From Octopus vulgaris (taxonomy: Eukaryota), in NCBI GenBank assembly GCA_951406725.2, contig OX597815.1, positions 46,066,001 to 46,130,000 on the forward strand: a stretch of 64,000 nucleotides of DNA, given 5' to 3'. How positions within the stretch are numbered: the first letter of the stretch is position 1; every line of letters begins with the position of its first letter. A program made the position numbers and the translations under genes. The notes under the pieces were generated by a model. It saw only the letters and a program-made list of their open reading frames with translations, was not told the DNA's origin and did not search any database. Positions 3,719 to 46,107 of this stretch are shown one piece after another.

Positions 3719-4439
3719 CACACACACACACAACACACACATAACCAAACATATGCACACAAGCATACACAAACATACATTTATGTGTGTTTATAGTACG
3801 TAAAAGGGGTGAGTTAGTGGAATTCAGGCAATTACCTCTGTCAGCTCTCATGAGAACCTCCGGTTAACAGGATGTACAGAAGGGAAAATCGGTCCAGTAA
3901 ATTCAAACTATTTCGCAAAAACTGAAAATCCGGGTATTTTCTTCAATCTCAGCGTATAACAATAAAACAAATAAAAGAATGAAGATAACACATTTATTAC
4001 CTGGTTACGGTCGTCTCAATAACAAGTGAAATGTGATAAATTATTGGACATACTGGAACAAATATAAAAACTGATTTTCTAGCTTCATGCTATATTAAGT
4101 ATTACTCAACCTGCAATTTCATCAAGATCTTCAAATGATGCAATAGGCCTGTATGTGGATGGTCGCATCAATGCAATCAGTGGAACTTCTAATATGATAA
4201 CCTGAACATAATCAATCTTACATGTTCAAGGAAAGATCCAAAGTAAAGAGGTTGAACAGACAGAAGTATGTATTCTACAAGATAAAATCGATTGTGACGC
4301 AATAGCTTTTGGTAAGATAAAAGATTGACTATGTAGTAGTTTTGCCTCAGACAGGGGCATGCTATTCAGTTGCAAGTAGATGTGAGTGATTTTCTAGCAG
4401 AACCCTACTAGACAGTTCAGGACGAGTATTGGGTCGGTG

Positions 4440-7595: not shown

Positions 7596-8384
7596 TTGAG
7601 TTGGCAACTAAGTTCCCGCGGTTTTTTAAATTTTGGAATCTATGTTTTGGGGAATTCTATTTTTGAATCATTTTGGAATCTATTTTGCTTTTTTTTTTCG
7701 AGTTAATTTTAGTTATTTTTTGTTTATTTTCAGATCATTAAAATGGAATATGAAGTTAAGAACAACGAGCATTTTCGACACCTCCTTTTTGCTTTTAATC
7801 AAGGTTCTAAGGTCGCAAAAGCTACTCGCGACATTTGTGCTGTGTATGGAGAGGGTGCCATAGCTGAAAGAACCGCTCGTGGTTGGTATGCCAAGTTCAA
7901 AAATGGAAATTTTGACCGCAAAGATGCACCTCGCTCTGGCCGTCCAGCTGAGTTCGATGAAGCGCGATTAATTCAACTTTTGCACGAAAATTCTCGTCAA
8001 ACGACACACTGCTATAGAGAAGCATCTTCACTCGATGGGAAAGGTTCAGAAGTATGGAGCATTGGTTCGCATGCTTTAAGAGACAACAACAAAAATCAAC
8101 GAGCCACAATCTCCGCTGGTTTGCTTCCTCATCACCGCTCAACTCATGGACACAAGCAATGATTTCTTTACCAAATCGTTACTGGCGACGAAAAATGGTG
8201 CCTGAACATCAATATGAAGCAGCGTAAGGAATAGCTTAGCCCCGGTAAACAAGCGACACCGCGCATGAAACAAGATCTTCATCCACGTAAAACGATGTTA
8301 TGCGTATGGTGGGACTGGGAAAGGATTATCCGTTACGAATTGCTTGAACGGAACCAAACGGTCAACGCGGAACTCTATGTTCAA
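7596..8384 (+). mobile_element. mariner transposon, 5' TIR plus decayed transposase, 3'-truncated
   Basis: TA then TTGAGTTGGCAACTAAGTTCCCGCGG. ORF from 7743 MEYEVKNNEHFRHLL...DAPRSGRP, later IVTGDEKW and LCVWWDW...NQTVNAELY, with frameshifts and stops. Confidence 0.92.
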
Positions 8385-8700
8385 ACAAAAGAGCTATTAG
8401 AATGACCGTTAAATAAGGGAAAAAACACTTATTTAACTGTCATTCTAATAGCTCTTTTGTCTTAATAAAGGTCAATTACATAGTAGTTTCCCTTTGTTTC
8501 ACGGTCATTTTCATAGCATATTTTAATTGTTTCGATAACTGAAGAGATGCCTGTGCAGGTTTCCGCCCCGACATCCGAAACTCGGAGTTTTATTATGGCA
8601 ACCTAATAATTGTTACATATTATATTATAAATAAATTCCTCTATTTACATAATATCGAGGTCTCTTTCATTCTTTTGTTGTCTTACCATTAGCATTACTA
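8385..8700 (+). mobile_element. Penelope-like pseudo-LTR remnant with hairpin and hammerhead motif
   Basis: 33-bp hairpin at 8385-8460, hammerhead core at 8535-8593, AATAAA, ends in (TA)n. An inverted partial copy lies at 7559-7595. Confidence 0.6.
8535..8593 (+). ncRNA. Type I hammerhead ribozyme-like motif
   Basis: ATAA-CTGAAGA-GATG...CATC-C-GAAA-C-TCGGA-GTT-TTAT. Stems I, II and III are present, with one extra C before GAAA. Confidence 0.65.
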
Positions 8701-13510: not shown

Positions 13511-14256
13511 TTTTTGTTGTTACAAATCATTTGTGTGAGATTTTGTTTTTATCTATCTATATATATTCCACACTACAATCTATATTGGTAAAAGACAAAG
13601 GAAATTTAAAAATATATAAAATTACTTAAAATTATATGCATATGTGCACACAATTAGATGGCCGTTGACTCTCATGAGTTCCTCCGCCCTTTAATGGATC
13701 TTGTTTTTCCTCCCGTAGTGTTGTTCAAAATCCTCCCCCTTACCAGCTTGGTGGGGGTTACCGGTTCAGTCGCCAACGATCCGACCATGTGACAGGTTGT
13801 ACTGGGTTACATACAGTAGCACTCATAACAATAATACATAATAATAATAATAATAATAATAATAATATATATATAAATGCATAAACACATATGTGGCCAT
13901 GTAAAGCTATACTCAGAGGATTTCCAATCGTGCGGGTCTCGTTTTGGTTTCAAGCGGAGTACATCAAAGAATACATTATCCATTATGGTCTCGTGCTGTT
14001 GTCAGACAGCGGTGAATCATTTGTGTGAGATTCGGTTGCTATTTTTAGCAGGAATATCTTGCAGTATTTCCCACCCTTCGTCATCGTTATTGGTAGCTAT
14101 AGTGGTGGTGGTGATGATGGAGATGGTGCTGGAGGTAATAAGAGAAGTAGGAAAGTAATTCTAATATCACACAGAGGTAATTTTAATAATAGTAACAACA
14201 ATGACGACGACGTCGATGATGATGGTGATAATAATAATAATGATAATAATAATAAT

Positions 14257-14362
14257 GCATGTGCCTGGTGCACCCTTATCAGACGGGTAGTCATGACGGG
14301 TGTATTTGGCTTCATATATTGTACTCATGTGTCACTTTGATGGAATGCACTGCTCACTCACT

Positions 14363-14363
<1 letters not shown>
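14257..14363 (+). mobile_element. 5'-truncated copy of the (AAT)n-targeted non-coding element (duplicate at 16795-16902)
   Basis: Matches the last ~105 bp of 17868-18420, with AAT repeats on both sides. Confidence 0.8.
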
Positions 14364-14399
<36 letters not shown>

Positions 14400-14606
14400 T
14401 TCTATTAAAGGCATAAGGCCTCAAATTTGGTAGGAGGGGACTAGTCGATTACATCGACCCCAGTGTTTCACTGGTACTTAATTTATCGGCCTTGTAAGAA
14501 TAAAAGGCAAAAGTCGAGCTCGATGAAATTTGCAATCAGCGTAGGTCGGGCGAAATGCCGCTAAGCATTTTGCTTGGCGTGCTAACGATTCTACCAGCCA
14601 GCTGCC

Positions 14607-14607
<1 letters not shown>
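14400..14607 (-). mobile_element. SINE family A
   Basis: GTCGATTACATCGACCCCAGTG...GAAATGCCGCTAAGCATTTTGCTTGGCGTGCTAACG. Confidence 0.8.
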
Positions 14608-14673
<66 letters not shown>

Positions 14674-14689
14674 TAAAAATAAAAATAAA

Positions 14690-14721
<32 letters not shown>

Positions 14722-14725
14722 TAAA

Positions 14726-15115
<390 letters not shown>

Positions 15116-15184
15116 AATAATATTAATAATAATAACAACAACAACAACAACAACATCATCATCATCATCAACAACAACAACAAC

Positions 15185-15228
<44 letters not shown>

Positions 15229-15239
15229 TAATAATAACA

Positions 15240-15425
15240 ATCCCTTCTACTATAGGCACAAGACCTGAAATTTGGGGGAGGGGGAAATTCAATTACCTCG
15301 ACTGATGTTTCACCAGTACTTAATTTATCGACCCCGAAAGAATGAAAGGCAAAGTCGTCCTTCCTGAAATTTGAACTCAGAACATAAGTAGGACGGCCGC
15401 AACAGGCTAACAATTCTATCTCCCC
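15240..15425 (-). mobile_element. SINE family A, decayed
   Basis: AGTACTTAATTTATCGACCCCGAAAGAATGAAAGGCAAAGTCG...GAAATTTGAACTCAGAAC. Confidence 0.75.
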
Positions 15426-15471
<46 letters not shown>

Positions 15472-15799
15472 CCCTGATGCAGTACCAGGCAGTGGCTCTC
15501 ATGGCTTCTGATCTTAACTGATTGGAAGTGTTATCATGTACATTGTTTTGTCTTGGTATAAAAGATGGGCTACAGCAAAAAATAAAATGAGCTTTCCCGC
15601 GGGACCTTAACCAGTTGAGCATGTCTCTTAGTGGCTGACGATATGTGCATCTCTGATCACGAGCAGAAGTAGTGGGGAGCATCATAGCCATGTGGTGAGA
15701 GGGATTCTTTGGGGTTTGAATAATTCACCTCTGGAAACATGGGTGGTTCTTTCAGCATCCTTAAACAACCCTTATTCAGGGACCTTTTGAGCGGGATAT

Positions 15800-16328: not shown

Positions 16329-16901
16329 CACATACACACGTACATCACGCACACACACACATACATTCATACATTACATATACACACGCGCATATATATA
16401 TTTGTGTGTGTATATGCATAACAGACATATGTGGCCATGTAAAGCTATACTCAGAGGATTTCCAATCGTGCGGGTCTCGTTTTGGTTTCAAGCGGAGTAC
16501 ATCAAAGAATACATTATCCATTATGGTCTCGTGCTGTTGTCAGACAGCGGTGAATCATTTGTGTGAGATTCGGTTGCTATTTTTAGCAGGAATATCTTGC
16601 AGTATTTCCCACCCTTCGTCATCGTTATTGGTAGCTATAGTGGTGGTGGTGATGATGGAGATGGTGCTGGAGGTAATAAGAGAAGTAGGAAAGTAATTCT
16701 AATATCACACAGAGGTAATTTTAATAATAGTAACAACAATGACGACGACGTCGATGATGATGGTGATAATAATAATAATGATAATAATAATAATGCATGT
16801 GCCTGGTGCACCCTTATCAGACGGGTAGTCATGACGGGTGTATTTGGCTTCATATATTTGTACTCATGTGTCACTTTGATGGAATGCACTGCTCGCTCAC
16901 T

Positions 16902-16944
<43 letters not shown>

Positions 16945-16991
16945 TTCTATTAAAGGCATAAGGCCTCAAATTTGGTAGGAGGGGACTAGTC

Positions 16992-17054
<63 letters not shown>

Positions 17055-17104
17055 TAAAAATAAAAAATAAAAATAATAATAATAATAATAATAATAAAAA
17101 TAAA

Positions 17105-17221
<117 letters not shown>

Positions 17222-17786
17222 CCTCTCAAGTACGAAATAGCCCGACTATGGAAAATGAAGGGGAATTATCGTTGGGTCCTCGGGAACAATATCAGAAGGC
17301 ATCAAGATGAATATAAAGGAAATTGGAATAAAGTACCCAGTAGAACTGTTACAAAAAGTTTGCTTCCTTGACACAACCAGAATAATCAGGAAAGTATTAG
17401 ATAGCTGAAAAGAACGAATTATATGGTACCGTAGGCTGCAGGTGGTAATCCCGTTACGCATGCAAGACTTCAGGTGTTCCAAGAAAGCCTGTGATAAAGA
17501 GAAATAATATTAATAATAATAACAACAACAACAACAACAACATCATCATCATCATCAACAACAACAACAACAACAATAATAATAATAATAATAATAATAA
17601 AATAATATAATAAGATAATAATAACAATCCCTTCACACACAAGACATGGTTGTGCGTGTGTGTGTGTACTCAATTTCCTAGTGCACCAGTATTAATTTAT
17701 GGAAAGAATAAAGGCAAATTCCTTCCGAAATTTGAACTCAGAACATAAGTAGGACGGCCGCAACAGGCTAACAATTCTATCTCCCC

Positions 17787-17849
<63 letters not shown>

Positions 17850-17867
17850 CATAATAATAATAATAAT

Positions 17868-18420
17868 GCCCTGATGCAGTACCAGGCAGTGGCTCTCATG
17901 GCTTCTGATCTTAACTGATTGGAAGTTTTATCATGTACATTGTTTTGTCTTGGTATAAAAGATGGGCTACAGCAAATATTCTGCTCAATCCCACAGATTT
18001 GCTTGTCAGTTGTTTGACCTTAACCAGTTGAGCATGTCTCTTAGTGGCTGACGATATGTGCATCTCTGATCACGAGCAGAAGTAGTGGGGAGCATCATAG
18101 CCATGTGGTGAGAGGGATTCTTTGGGGTTTGAATAATTCACCTCTGGAAACATGGGTGGTTCTTTCAACATCCTTAAACAACCCTTATTCAGGGACCTTT
18201 TGAGCGGGATAGGCTACTCAACCTGAAGAAAATTCTAACTGGGCCCCACCTGCAGGGTCATGTGCTGTTTATCTTAATATGAGATCACCATGTCGCGCAC
18301 ATATGGTTGTGATGCATGTGTCTGGTGTACCCTTATCGGACGGGTAGTCATGATGGGTATATTGGGGTTCGTATATTTTACCCCAGTGTCACTTTGATGG
18401 CATGCACTGCTCTCTCACTC
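17868..18420 (+). mobile_element. ~550-bp non-coding (AAT)n-targeted element, full-length copy (partial copy 15471-15798)
   Basis: GCCCTGATGCAGTACCAGG...CTCTCTCACTC with (AAT)n on both sides. A second full copy is at 30558-31101 on the minus strand. Confidence 0.88.
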
Positions 18421-24614: not shown

Positions 24615-24778
24615 TGTTTGCGCGCCTTGCAAAATGCATTGCAGCATTTCGTCCGTGTTACGTTTTGAGTTCAAATTCCGCCGAGGTCAACTTTGCCTTT
24701 CATTCTTTCGAGGTCGATAAAATAAGTACTAGTTGAGTTCCGGGATCGATGCAATCGACTAGGCCATTCCGCAAAATT
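24615..24778 (+). mobile_element. SINE family A
   Basis: GAGTTCAAATTCCGCCGAGGTCAACTTTGCCTTTCATTCTTTCGAGGTCGATAAAATAAGTAC. Confidence 0.85.
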
Positions 24779-24833
24779 ATATCTGATGAGACCGGTGCCT
24801 CTTATACACGCACGAAACTTTAAGTCATGCGGA
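24779..24833 (+). ncRNA. Decayed hammerhead ribozyme-like motif
   Basis: AT-CTGATGA-GACCGGTGC...GCAC-GAAA-C-TTTAA-GTC-AT. Stem III loop is identical to that of the 42454 motif. Stem II lacks part of its 3' strand. Confidence 0.55.
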
Positions 24834-24926
24834 GCAAAGTTAAACAGTGTCATTAAAATATATGTAATTCTTACCAAGTGCGTTGACTTGTTACTTTCCT
24901 TCGTTTGTTCTCTCAGTCACATGTAC

Positions 24927-28987: not shown

Positions 28988-30462
28988 GCCTTTGCACAGC
29001 TTCTAACGCTGGAGATGTACTACAGTGTCAGCTGTTCACTACCAGTGAACTAAGGTAACACCTTATTTTTCGAGCACCTTCCGGAGTATTCGAGCGGCTC
29101 CAAGCAGTGCTATTTTCTGCAAGTGCTCCATCGTTATTGCAACCCCTATTTGTTCCACGTACTTCTCCAGATGTTTTCTCACTGTTCCCAGTGGTCCGAC
29201 AATTATTGGTATTACTGTTACCTTTTTCATCGACCACAACTGCTTTACTTTCCAAGCTAACTTTTCAAGCAACTTTTCTTTCTTCCTTATCGCATACCTT
29301 GTTGTCAGCTGGACGGGCTATATCAATGATCCAGCATAGTTTGTTTTCTTTCTCCGTTAAGACTATGTCCGGCTTCCTATTCTCTATCCCATGGTCGCAC
29401 TGAATCATAAAATCCCATAGGATCTTTGCATTTCTATTTTCGACGATGACTTCAGGTTTGTGGTCGTACCAATTTTTTTCATTATCAAGTCCCTTGTTGC
29501 AAAGTGTCCATATTGTCGTGGCGTCTCTTATATTCCTTCTGGGCGTGTGACGTACAATGGCTGGTAGTATGCCATACGGTTTCACCGTTTTGTCCACAGA
29601 TTCTGCAATTATCACTTTCTGATGTGTTGTCTATTCTGTAGTTTATGTAGTTTGTTCTTAGCGCTTGCTCTTGGGCAGCATAGATTAGAGCCTCCGTTTC
29701 AGGTTTTAAATCACTTTTAGTCATCCACAACCATCTTTTTTCTCTGTCTGTCTTATCTTCAATATCCCTATGAAATTGACCATGCATTCTTTTCTTTACC
29801 CACCTATTTTTAGTTTCATTCGTTCTCAATTTCTTGTATAGTGCTTTATTTTTATAATCTTTCATCCTACACACACCTGATCTTCTAATAATAGCGGTTC
29901 TGTGGCATTTTTTACATACCATACTATATTGCTTTCTTCTGCTCTAATGCTGGGTTCGCATCCAATAAGTTCTCTTCCCCCTCTTTTTCTTGGTATATAT
30001 AGTCTGCCTGTGTCACTTTTTGAGTGGAGTGACCTATATCTAGTTAGCAACTTCTTTGTCTTTCTGTTTAAGCTGTTTTGTTCTTCTACTGTACATGCGA
30101 TTACTCCTGCTCCATATCTAAGGAGTGAAACCGCCCAGGTATTGATAGCTTCGATCTCATTCCATCCGTTTAATTTCGACTTAAGGATCATTCTTAGTCT
30201 GCGCAAGTACTCCACCTTAAATTTTTCTGTCATCTCTTTCTCCATCAATTTATCAATTTCCAAAATCCCCAAGTACTTATAGCCCGTCTCTTCTATCTGC
30301 TTCTTAGCCTTCCCCGACGGTATCGTTAACCCGTCCATACATTTGATTTTGCCTCTCTTCAAGACTAACACCCCACACTTCTCAGTCCGAACTCCATTCT
30401 GATATCAGTACTGAAGGTATACACCGTATCAACGAGGGAACTGACTTGGGCTTCATCATAAA
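28988..30462 (-). mobile_element. 5'-truncated R4/Dong-clade non-LTR retrotransposon, family 1 (RT end, zinc knuckle, RLE), frameshifted
   Basis: DIRMEFG, YKYLG, AINTWAVSLLRYG, LYIPRKRGGR, MHGQF, AAQEQALRT, CRICG..ETVWH, RRHDN, KILWDF, RKPDIVL..IIDIA, IIVGPLG, ARILRKVL*. Microsatellite on both sides. Confidence 0.93.
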
Positions 30463-31445: not shown

Positions 31446-31942
31446 GTTTGACTTTTGCTTTATATTTGTACAAGTTGGCTCCAAGTCTCACCCGGAGACC
31501 TCAAGAGACAACAGGTTGGAAGTTCACGTTGTTGTTATGCCTAGTGTGCCATATATTTGGTTGTTTTTTGTGTTGTACTGGTGGATGTCTAAAAAAAAAT
31601 GTTTGTTTTAAACCTTGATATTACATAGAAAGTATTTTGCGTAGGATATGAGCAGCTCCCATGAGCACTATCTTTTGAATTTCTGCCATATTTGGGTTTC
31701 CTGGTATCTGAGTTAGGTAGCTATCAGCCCCTTTTGTTATCATTCTCAGGGCACCTATGACAACAGGTATTGTTTTAGTCTTCAGGTTCCACATTTTGCT
31801 GATTTCTATTTCAAGATCTTTATATTTGCTCAGTTTTTGGTAGGTCTTGACAGATACGTTTATATCGATTGGGACAGTCATATCAATGAGGAGGCATGTT
31901 CTTTGTTTGAAGTCTTTCAATATGATGTCTGGCATATTTGCA
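31444..31942 (-). mobile_element. R4/Dong LINE 3' fragment, family 2 (RLE domain plus 3' UTR)
   Basis: PDIILKD..CLLIDMTVP..KLSKYKDL..IPVVIGAL..AHILRKILSM*. Flanked by (ATT)n and (ATC)n. Confidence 0.92.
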
Positions 31943-31943
31943 T

Positions 31944-31987
<44 letters not shown>

Positions 31988-40692: not shown

Positions 40693-42453
40693 TCATATAT
40701 ATATATATATATACATATATATATACATTCATATATATATACTCAGGTATGTATGTGTGTGTCTATGTATGGGTGTGAGAGTGTGTGTATGTGTGTGCAT
40801 TTGAGGGAGAGAGTGAAGGAAGAAGCGAAAGGGCATATATGTATGCGAATATCTTTTCTGTAAGTCAATTTTCTTACTGTATGTTTCATACATATACATA
40901 TACATTTTATTTTTTGTATATATACATATATATTTTATTTTTTTTCTTCTTAAACACAAGAAATAAACCACAAACTAAAAAGTAATAACAATCAAAAAGG
41001 TGAAAGTGTTGAATTTCTATGTTTCTACTGGAAACACCGAAATTTTAGACTTTCATCTTCCCTCAGGAGGGAAGTAAAATCCACTTGCTAAACAAAGCGC
41101 TTAATAGTCTTTTTCTGCTTGTTTAACTTGCGTGAGACGTATTCCTTTTGTGTAGTTCAACACTTTATATACGTATATATACAAATTTAAAAATTGAATA
41201 TGCGACCGGTAAGTTCAAAGGCAGAAATTTTTTGTAATATATGTAAGAATCAGGTCTTTACGATTGACTTATTGTTTCAGTAGGTTTCATGTCATTCATG
41301 TTCTATATACGTATTTTCTATGAACTCCACCGTCTACATATAGAACTCAATCACTTAGCGTTACTATAAAAATCTTTTTATGTTTGTTTTCGCTCCTTGA
41401 TCGATGTACTAGTCATTTTGACATCAATGTGTGCATGTTCATCAAAATACATTTTCATAGTTTCTATGAAATTCATTGCCTGCATACAGACCTCAGTCAC
41501 TTAAGTGTTGCTATTAAGATTCCCTTTTTACATCTTTGTCCCTTGACTGTTGTGTTGGTCATTTTCATATCAATGTGAAAATGTTTATGAAAATATGGTG
41601 TTTGTCGACTCTATGGCGTAAACTATTATATTATCCTTCTTTAAATGCTACCATTCTTTCTACAAATCATTTCTTTAAACAGCAACATAGTCAAGAATAT
41701 ACCAACCCATTTTACAAGTCGCTTATACTTTCAACGGAATTAGAAACCAGATACCTTTTTCATTTCAATTATCTGCAGACATAGTTACATAAGCGTGCGT
41801 ACACAAACATTCACTCACACACACACACATGCTCGCACACATACATGCACTCACACAATGACATACATGCATAGTAGTTTTCATTGTAATTACACGAAGA
41901 ACTTTTTTTCTTTTGCAAGGTATACATGTCTTGGAAATTTAACCTGTATGTTAAAAAATTCACTCTCTGTTTTTTTTCGCTCTATTGCTGAACAATTAAC
42001 GATCTATGAAGGGAGAAAAAAACATAACATGACTGCTTTTTAAACTGTCAAGTATTTTCTTTGTAAGAATTGTCTAACTTCGTGAAAATGTTTAATTTAG
42101 CAACAATCTTTTGTTATTAGTTATGTCGTACTGACGATTTCAAAGAAGGATGAAATAGTGCTATACACAGCTGCCAACGACTAGAAATTTTAAGCTCTTT
42201 ATAACGTGCAAAAAATTAATATTGAATGTGTATATCCTGTACACTTTTAGACTTTGATTTAAGCTTCAATCTTTCACACACGCCTCAATTTGGAGGACAT
42301 CGCACATGCATATAAACAAAATCACACACACACGCGCACGCACACCCACGTACAGACACACACATACACATATGTATGAGTGAGTGGACAAACGAAAGAA
42401 AGAGATACTCCATAAATTTAGGAGTTATACGTATTGTTACTTAAAAACACTTT

Positions 42454-42529
42454 CATCGGTCCTATGCAACTTAAAGTTTCGTAGGCTCGGCGCACGTTAC
42501 CTAGCTCGTCAGGCGCAGGCTACCGAATG
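42454..42529 (-). ncRNA. Type I hammerhead ribozyme with extended, bulged stem I
   Basis: TCGGT-AG-CCTGCGC-CTGACGA-GCTAGG-TAACGTGCGCCGAG-CCTAC-GAAA-C-TTTAA-GTT-GCATAGG-ACCGA. Confidence 0.8.
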
Positions 42530-42752
42530 CTGCGAAAGGGGAAGTCCAAGATGACTACTGGAAATTAATATGTTACTGATTAAGGCCGGTCACATGATGT
42601 TGTTGAAAATAGTTCTGAAATATCAGCGACATCAATTATATCAAAATAAAGATCCCAATCTGTAGTCCATGGACCATGTCACTGGCTGGAAAGGATGTTG
42701 GCGATGTTTCACTGGGTAGAAAATATATAAATATAAAGATAGTTAGATAGAA

Positions 42753-42788
<36 letters not shown>

Positions 42789-43717: not shown

Positions 43718-46107
43718 AACATAGACATATATATGAAGATACATACACATATGTGTTTTATATATATGTGTGTGTGTATTAAAATTTTATATATATATAT
43801 ATATATATAATGGAGAGAGAGAGAGAGGGAGGGAGGGAGGAAAGAGAGAGAATAAATGAGTGAAGGAGTGGGAGAGGTAAAAAGAGGGTAAGGCAGTTTG
43901 TCATACAAACTAGAAGAGCGAAAGACTGGATGAGGAAGGGTTCGTGGATTAAAGATATTTTTTTTTATCTGTGTATACAGGTGTGAGATTATAACACACA
44001 CACACACACACACACGCTCACAAACATATATGTTATATATGTTTTATATTATGAACACCGGTGGGGCAAATAGTGCAAAGAACATTTTAACTTAGCTGAG
44101 TTGAACTGAATAACCGAATTTAGACAACAGCAGCTGTAACAACAATAATGCTAGCACTACCGCAATTTACCATTGCTAAATATCACAATTATAAAACACC
44201 ACCACCACCACCACCACCACCACCACCGACGGTCAACGATCAGCACCACCACCTCCAACATCAACACCAGCACCACCAGCAACAACAACCACAAGAACAA
44301 GAATAACAACAACAACAAAGAACAACATATCTCACCCGCCATCTCCGCAACCGTAACGATAATAAATTCAAAAACACGGCTATTAAAGCAATTGTAATAA
44401 TATTCATAGAAAGCAATGGAAAGCAATTCCAATAGTCAATTATTATTTTTTGTTTATGTCTTTCTTTTTTTTTTTTTAATTTATTTATCCTCCTGTTTAG
44501 CGGAAGTGGCACAGCGCAACGTGTAGAACATGTGCGAGATTTGGACTAGCAATTTGACGGATATAATAGACTGTGTGAAAACTACCACGATAATTTCCAT
44601 TTATAATTCTGTACTCCAAATTACAGGGATTTGTGCCGATGTTATACATTATTACTGTTGTCTAACCAATGAGGAAATCTGTACATGGTCGCTTACCTGG
44701 TAGAAATAGAAGCGAAATCTCCCTGTAATCACATCTTAAATCGCCATTTGGCAATTTAATAAGAGTTCTGACTGTTATTTCAAGCAGGTAGACATACTTA
44801 CTATGTCATTTGATTAATTTTAATCCCTCGGCTATTTAATGCTATTTTTAGGCCTGCTATCGCCTGTGTCATTGATTGTTATTATCATGTTTAAAATATT
44901 TACATCGGATAATAATAGAATTAATGACACCTTCGCAAATAAATTTTTCTTGAATTATTTTTCTCGTAAATTGTATCGAGATTATTTTACACTGGTGGCT
45001 GCTGTTATTTCGGCGCAAAACGCATCAGTTGCAGCATAGACTTCAAAACGATGGGTTAAGAATCTCTAATCATGGTAACGCGTGCTGAAGAAGCTAAGGC
45101 TTATTTTGCCAGTGCAGAAACCGGTCCACGTGAGTCCAGATACTTAAATGTATGTTAGTAGATTGTCTTAACTTGATTTTGCCTTCGTTTGATTTCAATT
45201 GTTTGAGACAGTTAAGAAAAAGTATGTAGCGTCATAAAGGTCAGCTGTCCTGCTGATGCGAATATCTCCTTGTAACTATGGACAATGCCCTCAATATGTC
45301 GTACCTCATGTCACTTGAAAGATTTAATCATAACTATATGACATACAAAGGAGTATGTCGGAGATGTTATACTGATGATTCCGTTTAATTTTGGTATTGG
45401 ACCGGTAATACTCAAGTGAAGGACCAAGTCGATTAGATTCACCCCAGCACTTGACTGGTACTTTCCTTCTGGTTTTGTAAAGTCAGGTTTATCAATACTG
45501 GTACCGAGACACTTAAGTAATCAATTTCCTCGATAACCATAAGTATGAATTAGAAGTTATGGTCCGGTTGAATATGCAGATTTCTCCTTGGTTATCGATA
45601 AATGTGTATATTTATGTATTATGCATCTATGTTTATGCTGACTGTTATGTGAATTATATAAATATATATATCATGCATGAATGATAATACATATCATTCA
45701 ATATGGATGACATCCGTACCCATCGATTTCAAACCGACTATAAATGTATGTGTGTATGTATGTATTCTTATCTGTTTTTAATTATTTAAATTTTTCCTTT
45801 GAAGGCGGAGCTAGCTTCTGATAAAGATACAAAACTCCATCATTGGAATGTTGATAACGAAAACAATGTCACATTTTAAACCTGAGAAAAGTCTTGCATA
45901 GTTTTATTGTTCCGCTTACTTGTATTTGTAATGTGTGAGTCGGCTGATTTCTTTTTCTGAAAATCCAAGTTTATCCAGACTGACAGTTAGGCATTTACTT
46001 ACAAGCGCGTGTCATAACCACACAGCCATACCTGAGCCTATATATTGTACATGCATATTAGAAGAATATGTTTGTACCTATACCGATCATAAAATATTAT
46101 CGGTATA

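Follow-up and report, generated by a model that had tools for sequence, protein, structure and literature searches.

A hammerhead ribozyme motif of Octopus vulgaris as a probable relic in the pseudo-LTR of an old Penelope-like element

The hammerhead motif and its repeat family

The window, by which we mean the whole stretch of Octopus vulgaris DNA analysed (64,000 nt), carries a hammerhead motif on its minus strand at 42454-42529. The cores CUGACGA (42512-42506), GAAA (42480-42477) and GUU (42470-42468) were found intact, and cleavage is predicted between 42468 and 42467. Proximal helix I pairs CCUGCGC with GCAUAGG at six of seven positions (one of them G-U) and continues past a 2-nt AG bulge into five distal pairs, UCGGU/ACCGA; helix II consists of 5 bp and a bulged C, with an extra U-G pair possible that sets the loop at 14 or 12 nt, and helix III consists of AC/GU enclosing UUUAA. 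An earlier sequence-only reading of the same DNA had described these cores, both longer helices, the UUUAA loop and the cut, and each was recovered as described. The GC-rich island that it had noticed was also confirmed, the 76-nt motif having a GC content of 55%, equalled by 38 of 1683 76-nt windows. CUGANGA, GAAA and an NUH triplet, the core criteria for type I, are all present in the window copy, the three helices, with helix I open, are backed by the family covariation described below, and GUU is given among the cleavable NUH triplets in the account of PMC3138052. The features of the locus are collected in Table 1.

Table 1. Coordinates of the hammerhead, the surrounding repeat and a sibling copy in the window
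Feature	Position	Strand	Remarks
Second, independent family copy (GUC subfamily)	24764..24913	+	17.6 kb from motif, opposite strand
Putative solo pseudo-LTR (3' end; 5'-truncated) with the hammerhead, from an old Penelope-like element of Hydra-clade type	42382..42725	-	family profile; 72% identity to L175 pLTR
pLTR part upstream of ribozyme	42530..42725	-	common to 19 other genome matches
Helix I, 5' strand	UCGGU 42526-42522, AG bulge 42521-42520, CCUGCGC 42519-42513	-	
Core CUGACGA (C3-A9)	42506..42512	-	
Helix II and loop II: G10.1-C11.1, bulged C, UAGG/CCUA, optional U-G	42481..42505	-	
Core GAAA, near-palindromic helix/loop III ACUUUAAGU, cleavage triplet GUU	42468..42480	-	
Helix I, 3' strand GCAUAGG-ACCGA	42456..42467	-	
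AT-rich 3' tail of element	42382..42455	-	last ~30 nt resemble end of young intact Hydra-type PLE
AT-rich simple repeat with (TA)n, 5' side of insertion	42723..42788	.	

A loose core pattern was matched 21 times in the window, a number reached by 11 of 100 shuffles and thus not above chance alone. The Infernal check that the earlier reading had proposed gave no match of the Rfam hammerhead models in the window, either at the gathering threshold or up to E=10, and at the gathering threshold eight other family loci were likewise without a hammerhead match, so that the miss is due to the library and not to the window copy. Single-strand folding of the window motif gave a z-score of +0.67, that is, no signal. 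A tight core pattern, however, had 30 exact matches in the genome and its reversed control none, and this, together with the covariation described below, identifies the window motif as a genuine type I hammerhead motif.

The motif had been called solitary, a description that did not hold in the genome or in the window. A 131-nt query searched by BLAST against the 2.8-Gb genome returned 39 matches including itself, the others being 71-87% identical, and a sibling copy lies in the window itself (Table 1). The 191 nt upstream of the motif had 20 genome matches including self, and a pattern for the downstream part had 34, with none for its control. Once 10 duplicate loci had been removed, 90 loci were examined, and 9 of 116 candidate copies (eight reverse readings of the palindrome and one weak copy) were discarded to leave 107; at 7 of the 90 loci no hammerhead was detectable, leaving 83. 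The copy number that the earlier reading had wished to see checked thus stands at 107 hammerheads at 83 loci, which, like all genome copy figures from these searches, is a lower bound, while the tandem arrangement that it had also raised was absent, none of the 83 loci holding two copies on one strand no more than 400 bp from the centre. Opposite-strand pairs were present at 24 of them (the pair at L138 is doubtful). Based on the at least 30 core-pattern matches and the fewer than 6% of copies that are intact, the family likely exceeds 500 copies, an estimate and not a count.

A profile of 32 family copies, the window copy among them, set the boundaries of a common unit of about 345 bp, which corresponds to 42382-42725 of the window. 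The upstream part of this unit contains, in relatives, CATGTG, CCAAT and GCCATCTT words, which may be promoter-like; in the window copy the CCAAT and GCCAT words have changed. A mixed TG/TA tract follows its 3' end, and (TA)n is found some 30 nt from its 5' end, such repeats being everywhere in the window.

The fold was assessed across the family in an alignment of 59 of the 107 copies, namely those with few indels in which the 5' core could be recognised. Hammerhead pairing was present in 70.8% of cells as against 31-40% when the pairing was slid, and helix II reached up to about eight pairs. Double-change cells numbered 135 against 78+-10 in shuffled alignments, none of 500 shuffles reaching 135, and two pair-count measures were weaker (12 and 13 of 500 shuffles), all of these covariation counts being inflated by relatedness and much of their signal being the division of the copies into GUU and GUC subfamilies. 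The subfamilies differ by G-C/C-G versus A-U/U-A at the base of helix I and by A-U versus G-C within helix II. Since the helices covary across copies, it is likely that the family fold was under selection in the past.

The parent element

The sequence-only reading had seen no recognisable transposon around the motif, and here the analysis departs from it. Judged from sequence, the repeat is the pseudo-LTR (pLTR) of a Penelope-like element (PLE) of Hydra-clade type, the clade assignment resting on motifs and BLAST. No ORF was found beside the window copy, so the link to an element runs through homologous copies. At one locus (L068/L175) a pLTR, a broken RT/GIY-YIG ORF whose first ~185 codons are unmatched, a CA-rich UTR of about 1 kb and the start of the next pLTR follow one another in one orientation, the second pLTR start being interrupted by another insertion. 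The same order, with the hammerhead in the pLTR and the CA-rich sequence as 3' UTR, describes the family unit, which at L178 is flanked by inverted repeats. Over 227 nt, the L175 pLTR that precedes the ORF shares 72% identity with the window copy. Truncation at the 5' end affects most insertions; many consist of the pLTR alone, and many have an inverted partner.

The association between ORF and pLTR was then measured from the coding side. A DNA search from the end of the L175 ORF gave 40 matches, 30 of which were analysed, 29 of them besides the query. A pLTR was present beside 17 of these 29 remnants (15 downstream on the same strand, 5 inverted upstream), or beside 16 of 28 when L186, first found through its hammerhead, is left out; at the other 12 of 29 none was found within 1.5 kb. 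None of 20 GIY-YIG control loci and none of 25 other PLEs of the same protein type had the pLTR, so that 17/29 compares with 0/45 (Fisher p 2e-9). With the window copy itself as query, 7 of the 29 remnants were matched. The remnants had a median identity of 70% to one another (429 pairs, 63-86%), and many contained stops.

As to the type of element, 29 of 30 remnants matched a 717-aa PLE by BLAST and none matched a 781-aa PLE, the 717-aa relative being intact and arranged in 2.6-kb tandem arrays in the genome. RWK, DKT, CxxC and CxCX5C were found in its protein, and CxH by eye; RWK and DKT were seen only in this young relative, which is 25-40% identical to the family. In the family remnants themselves the CxCX5C linker is intact at L044, L192 and L208 and decayed at L180, L186 and L191. 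RWK, DKT, CxCX5C, and CxxC with CxH in place of CCHH, are described as marks of the Hydra clade (PMC8557442). The Pfam GIY-YIG match on the intact 717-aa relative lay below the cut-off (E 0.014).

Two other parents were considered and rejected. The abundant 781-aa GIY-YIG PLE and its kin have different hammerheads and no similarity to the repeat. A PLE of the 574-aa type stands beside a family copy at L111, but that copy lies 1.7 kb past the ORF, beyond the end of the element, and this PLE is an unrelated neighbour. Three family loci also matched a stray fragment of an ORF that belongs to another type of PLE.

The family resembles Hydra-clade PLEs as these are described by Craig et al. 2021 (PMC8557442) in its type I motif near the 3' end of the element, its identical helix III, its CxCX5C linker, its inverted 5'-truncated partners and perhaps its (TA)n neighbourhood. 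In that description helix III reads ACUU-U-AAGU in Penelope-6, -8, -13, -14 and -15_HM, and U is often found at the cleavage site. The octopus family differs from the clade so described in being old and broken, in its longer, bulged helix I, and in its CA-rich 3' UTR, with which the unit would probably exceed 3 kb as against less than 3 kb for the Hydra clade. A Hydra family with a GUU hammerhead, Hydra-1_Obim, has already been published from Octopus bimaculoides (PMC8557442), but its hammerhead stems and loop, as tabulated there, are unlike those of the present family. The old octopus family was found neither in the literature searched nor in the tables of Craig et al., and other supplements may list it. 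Hammerheads in PLE pseudo-LTRs, the same helix III and an octopus family of the Hydra clade being already known, the find itself adds little beyond one old PLE family and proof that Rfam misses such motifs.

With the min-HHRs of metazoan PLEs (Cervera and de la Pena 2014, PMC4209133, here and in the next two comparisons as set out in that paper) the motif shares G10.1-C11.1 and an additional unpaired nucleotide at the base of helix II, a long helix II, a small palindromic helix III and high sequence variability. As there, most motifs occur singly and some as opposite-strand pairs 100-700 bp apart. Helix I, in contrast, is about 12-14 bp long with a bulge here and 4-5 bp there.

Most copies are short and without an ORF, and many share roughly one starting point behind a run of CA, so the short repeat might instead have spread alone, as a SINE- or retrozyme-like non-autonomous unit mobilised by PLE proteins. 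Non-LTR retrozymes, however, are described as tandem repeats of 150-450 bp (PMC7229834), whereas the 83 loci held no same-strand tandem pair; the inverted-pair form is a PLE signature; and the CA-rich upstream sequence is homologous to the 3' UTR of ORF-bearing copies, so that the common start may reflect simple-repeat decay. We therefore regard independent spread as very unlikely. The repeat is like the animal non-LTR retrozymes of that account in its type I hammerhead, its length of a few hundred bp and its low GC, and unlike them in lacking head-to-tail arrays at the locus and in being linked to a coding PLE body. The proposal of a retrozyme relic was thus correct as to a type I hammerhead derived from a retroelement and wrong as to the kind, given the link to an RT/GIY-YIG ORF in place of a tandem non-coding retrozyme.

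As the pseudo-LTR of a Penelope-like element, the window copy would have arisen by reverse transcription of an ancestral RNA into an AT-rich microsatellite, with synthesis starting at the RNA's 3' end and stopping after some 345 nt. While the element was active, its hammerhead may have cut a tandem transcript at GUU or GUC, cleavage probably being aided either by dimerisation of two motifs at the near-palindromic loop III, for which a self-pairing energy of -3.6 kcal/mol was predicted, or by the element's own protein. Dimers and weak in vitro cleavage are put forward for PLE hammerheads whose helix III is small and palindromic (PMC4209133), and a lizard PLE hammerhead is described as cleaving only with the protein of the element and as dispensable for in vitro insertion (PMC11167929). 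The window copy would have lost both partner and ORF.

State of the window copy

Identity of the window copy to the column majority of 31 relatives was 73% upstream of the hammerhead, 70% in its non-core part and 71% downstream. Its loop II departs from the family in three places, an A inserted at 42498 (present in none of 58 other copies), U changed to A at 42497 and A changed to C at 42490, a position occupied by A in 31 of 34 close relatives. The core was intact in none of 49 copies identified independently of it and in none of eight ORF-linked copies, and a perfect core is expected by chance in about 2-8% of copies, the other sequence being 27-30% diverged. A perfect core in so diverged a copy counts against a relic unless the family comprises hundreds of copies, as the estimate above suggests that it does. 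Its presence in the window may be explained by ascertainment, a reader seeking hammerheads being apt to pick such a copy from a large family. In run X9, which carries another organism label, a 346-nt contig covered the locus with seven differences (about 2% diverged), and the only listed change inside the motif, at 42470, breaks the C15.2-G16.2 pair of helix III in two contigs of low depth, a hint of decay. Taken together, the window copy is very probably a neutrally decaying relic in the lone terminal repeat of an old, broken PLE family.

Equilibrium folding predicted the active fold of the window copy at -11.3 kcal/mol against an MFE of -19.4 (about 8 above it), with a pair probability of about 0.01 for helix II, a calculation that discriminates weakly, since 0.5 or more is attained by only 5 of the 31 copies with an intact core. 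The model thus predicts that the window copy misfolds and cleaves poorly or not at all, and activity at this locus is unlikely, there being no same-strand partner or ORF nearby. The motif had been called well-formed, which is doubtful in view of its predicted fold. Fast cleavage through contact of helix I with loop II, as had been anticipated, finds no support in the window copy, where loop II has its three altered positions.

The copy might nevertheless be PLE-derived and exapted, cleaving a minus-strand host transcript under selection, for instance from within a very long intron. A fully intact core, not seen in the 49 unbiased siblings, helices I and II that can still be drawn, and a locus found in runs labelled as more than one organism would all fit this proposal, which the sequence-only reading had also made. 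No RNA run was listed among those containing the locus, which speaks neither for nor against its transcription. However, the non-core hammerhead has decayed as far as its flanks, the loop II changes are unique in the family, the core pattern is kept in at least 30 copies, and the change in run X9 breaks a helix III pair (again, two contigs of low depth). A scan of 150 of the 228 candidate ORFs revealed no convincing host exon in the 64-kb window, which is compatible with a very long intron; the only Pfam matches in these ORFs were mariner pieces and one sub-cut-off PapD-like match. The latter (44500-44661, minus strand) was rejected as a host gene, since neither the atlas (best 0.80) nor solved structures supported it. 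The conserved intronic hammerheads of amniotes are isolated type I motifs, as is the present one; unlike them, the window copy is multicopy, decays like its flanks and has no host gene shown. Exaptation is thus very unlikely; if true, it would give an invertebrate domesticated ribozyme with its parent element still identifiable. A chance resemblance to a hammerhead, with which the missing Rfam match, the lack of a folding signal and the commonness of the loose pattern would agree, is scarcely credible beside the double-change and pairing excess of the family helices and the agreement of position and helix III with published PLE hammerheads.

Other Penelope-like elements and features

At least four families of PLE, differing in their hammerhead variants, are present in the genome, and one of them is young and forms intact tandem arrays. 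For the question of whether PLE hammerheads need dimers or help from a protein, this is a better test bed than the relic. One locus of the young family (L172, G000:C1:57205500-57215400, minus strand) is a head-to-tail array of the intact 717-aa PLE with a period of about 2.6 kb and clear pLTRs, in which all three hammerheads seen have CCGAAGA in place of CUGAAGA. Many intact ORFs of the 717-aa PLE occur genome-wide. A fragment of the 3' end of this element lies in the window at 8534-8690 (plus strand, 80% identical over 158 nt) and has a hammerhead of its own, CUGAAGA ... GAAAC UCGGA GUU, the third in the window.

The abundant young 781-aa PLE (RT and GIY-YIG; L097, L099, L100, L112) has a pLTR hammerhead whose helix III is the palindrome ACAUGU and whose core carries the U3-A8 swap (UUGAUAA); such a swap is published for Schistosoma PLEs (PMC4209133). 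Another PLE family, with a 574-aa open frame, has a minimal hammerhead ending in GAAAGUAC (L106 at 4220-4250 and L109 at 3805-3836, both on the plus strand).

The window contains further repeats at a distance from the motif. A broken mariner transposase with HTH_48 and Transposase_1 matches lies at 7713-8402 (plus strand). Fragments of an apparent non-LTR retrotransposon RT and endonuclease, which had no Pfam match at E 0.001 and which we presume to be R2/R4-like, lie at 29268-30404 and 31624-31944 (both minus strand). Finally, 13877-15530 and 16418-17870 form a local duplication of about 1.5 kb, in which the same ORF text and repeat pattern occur twice.
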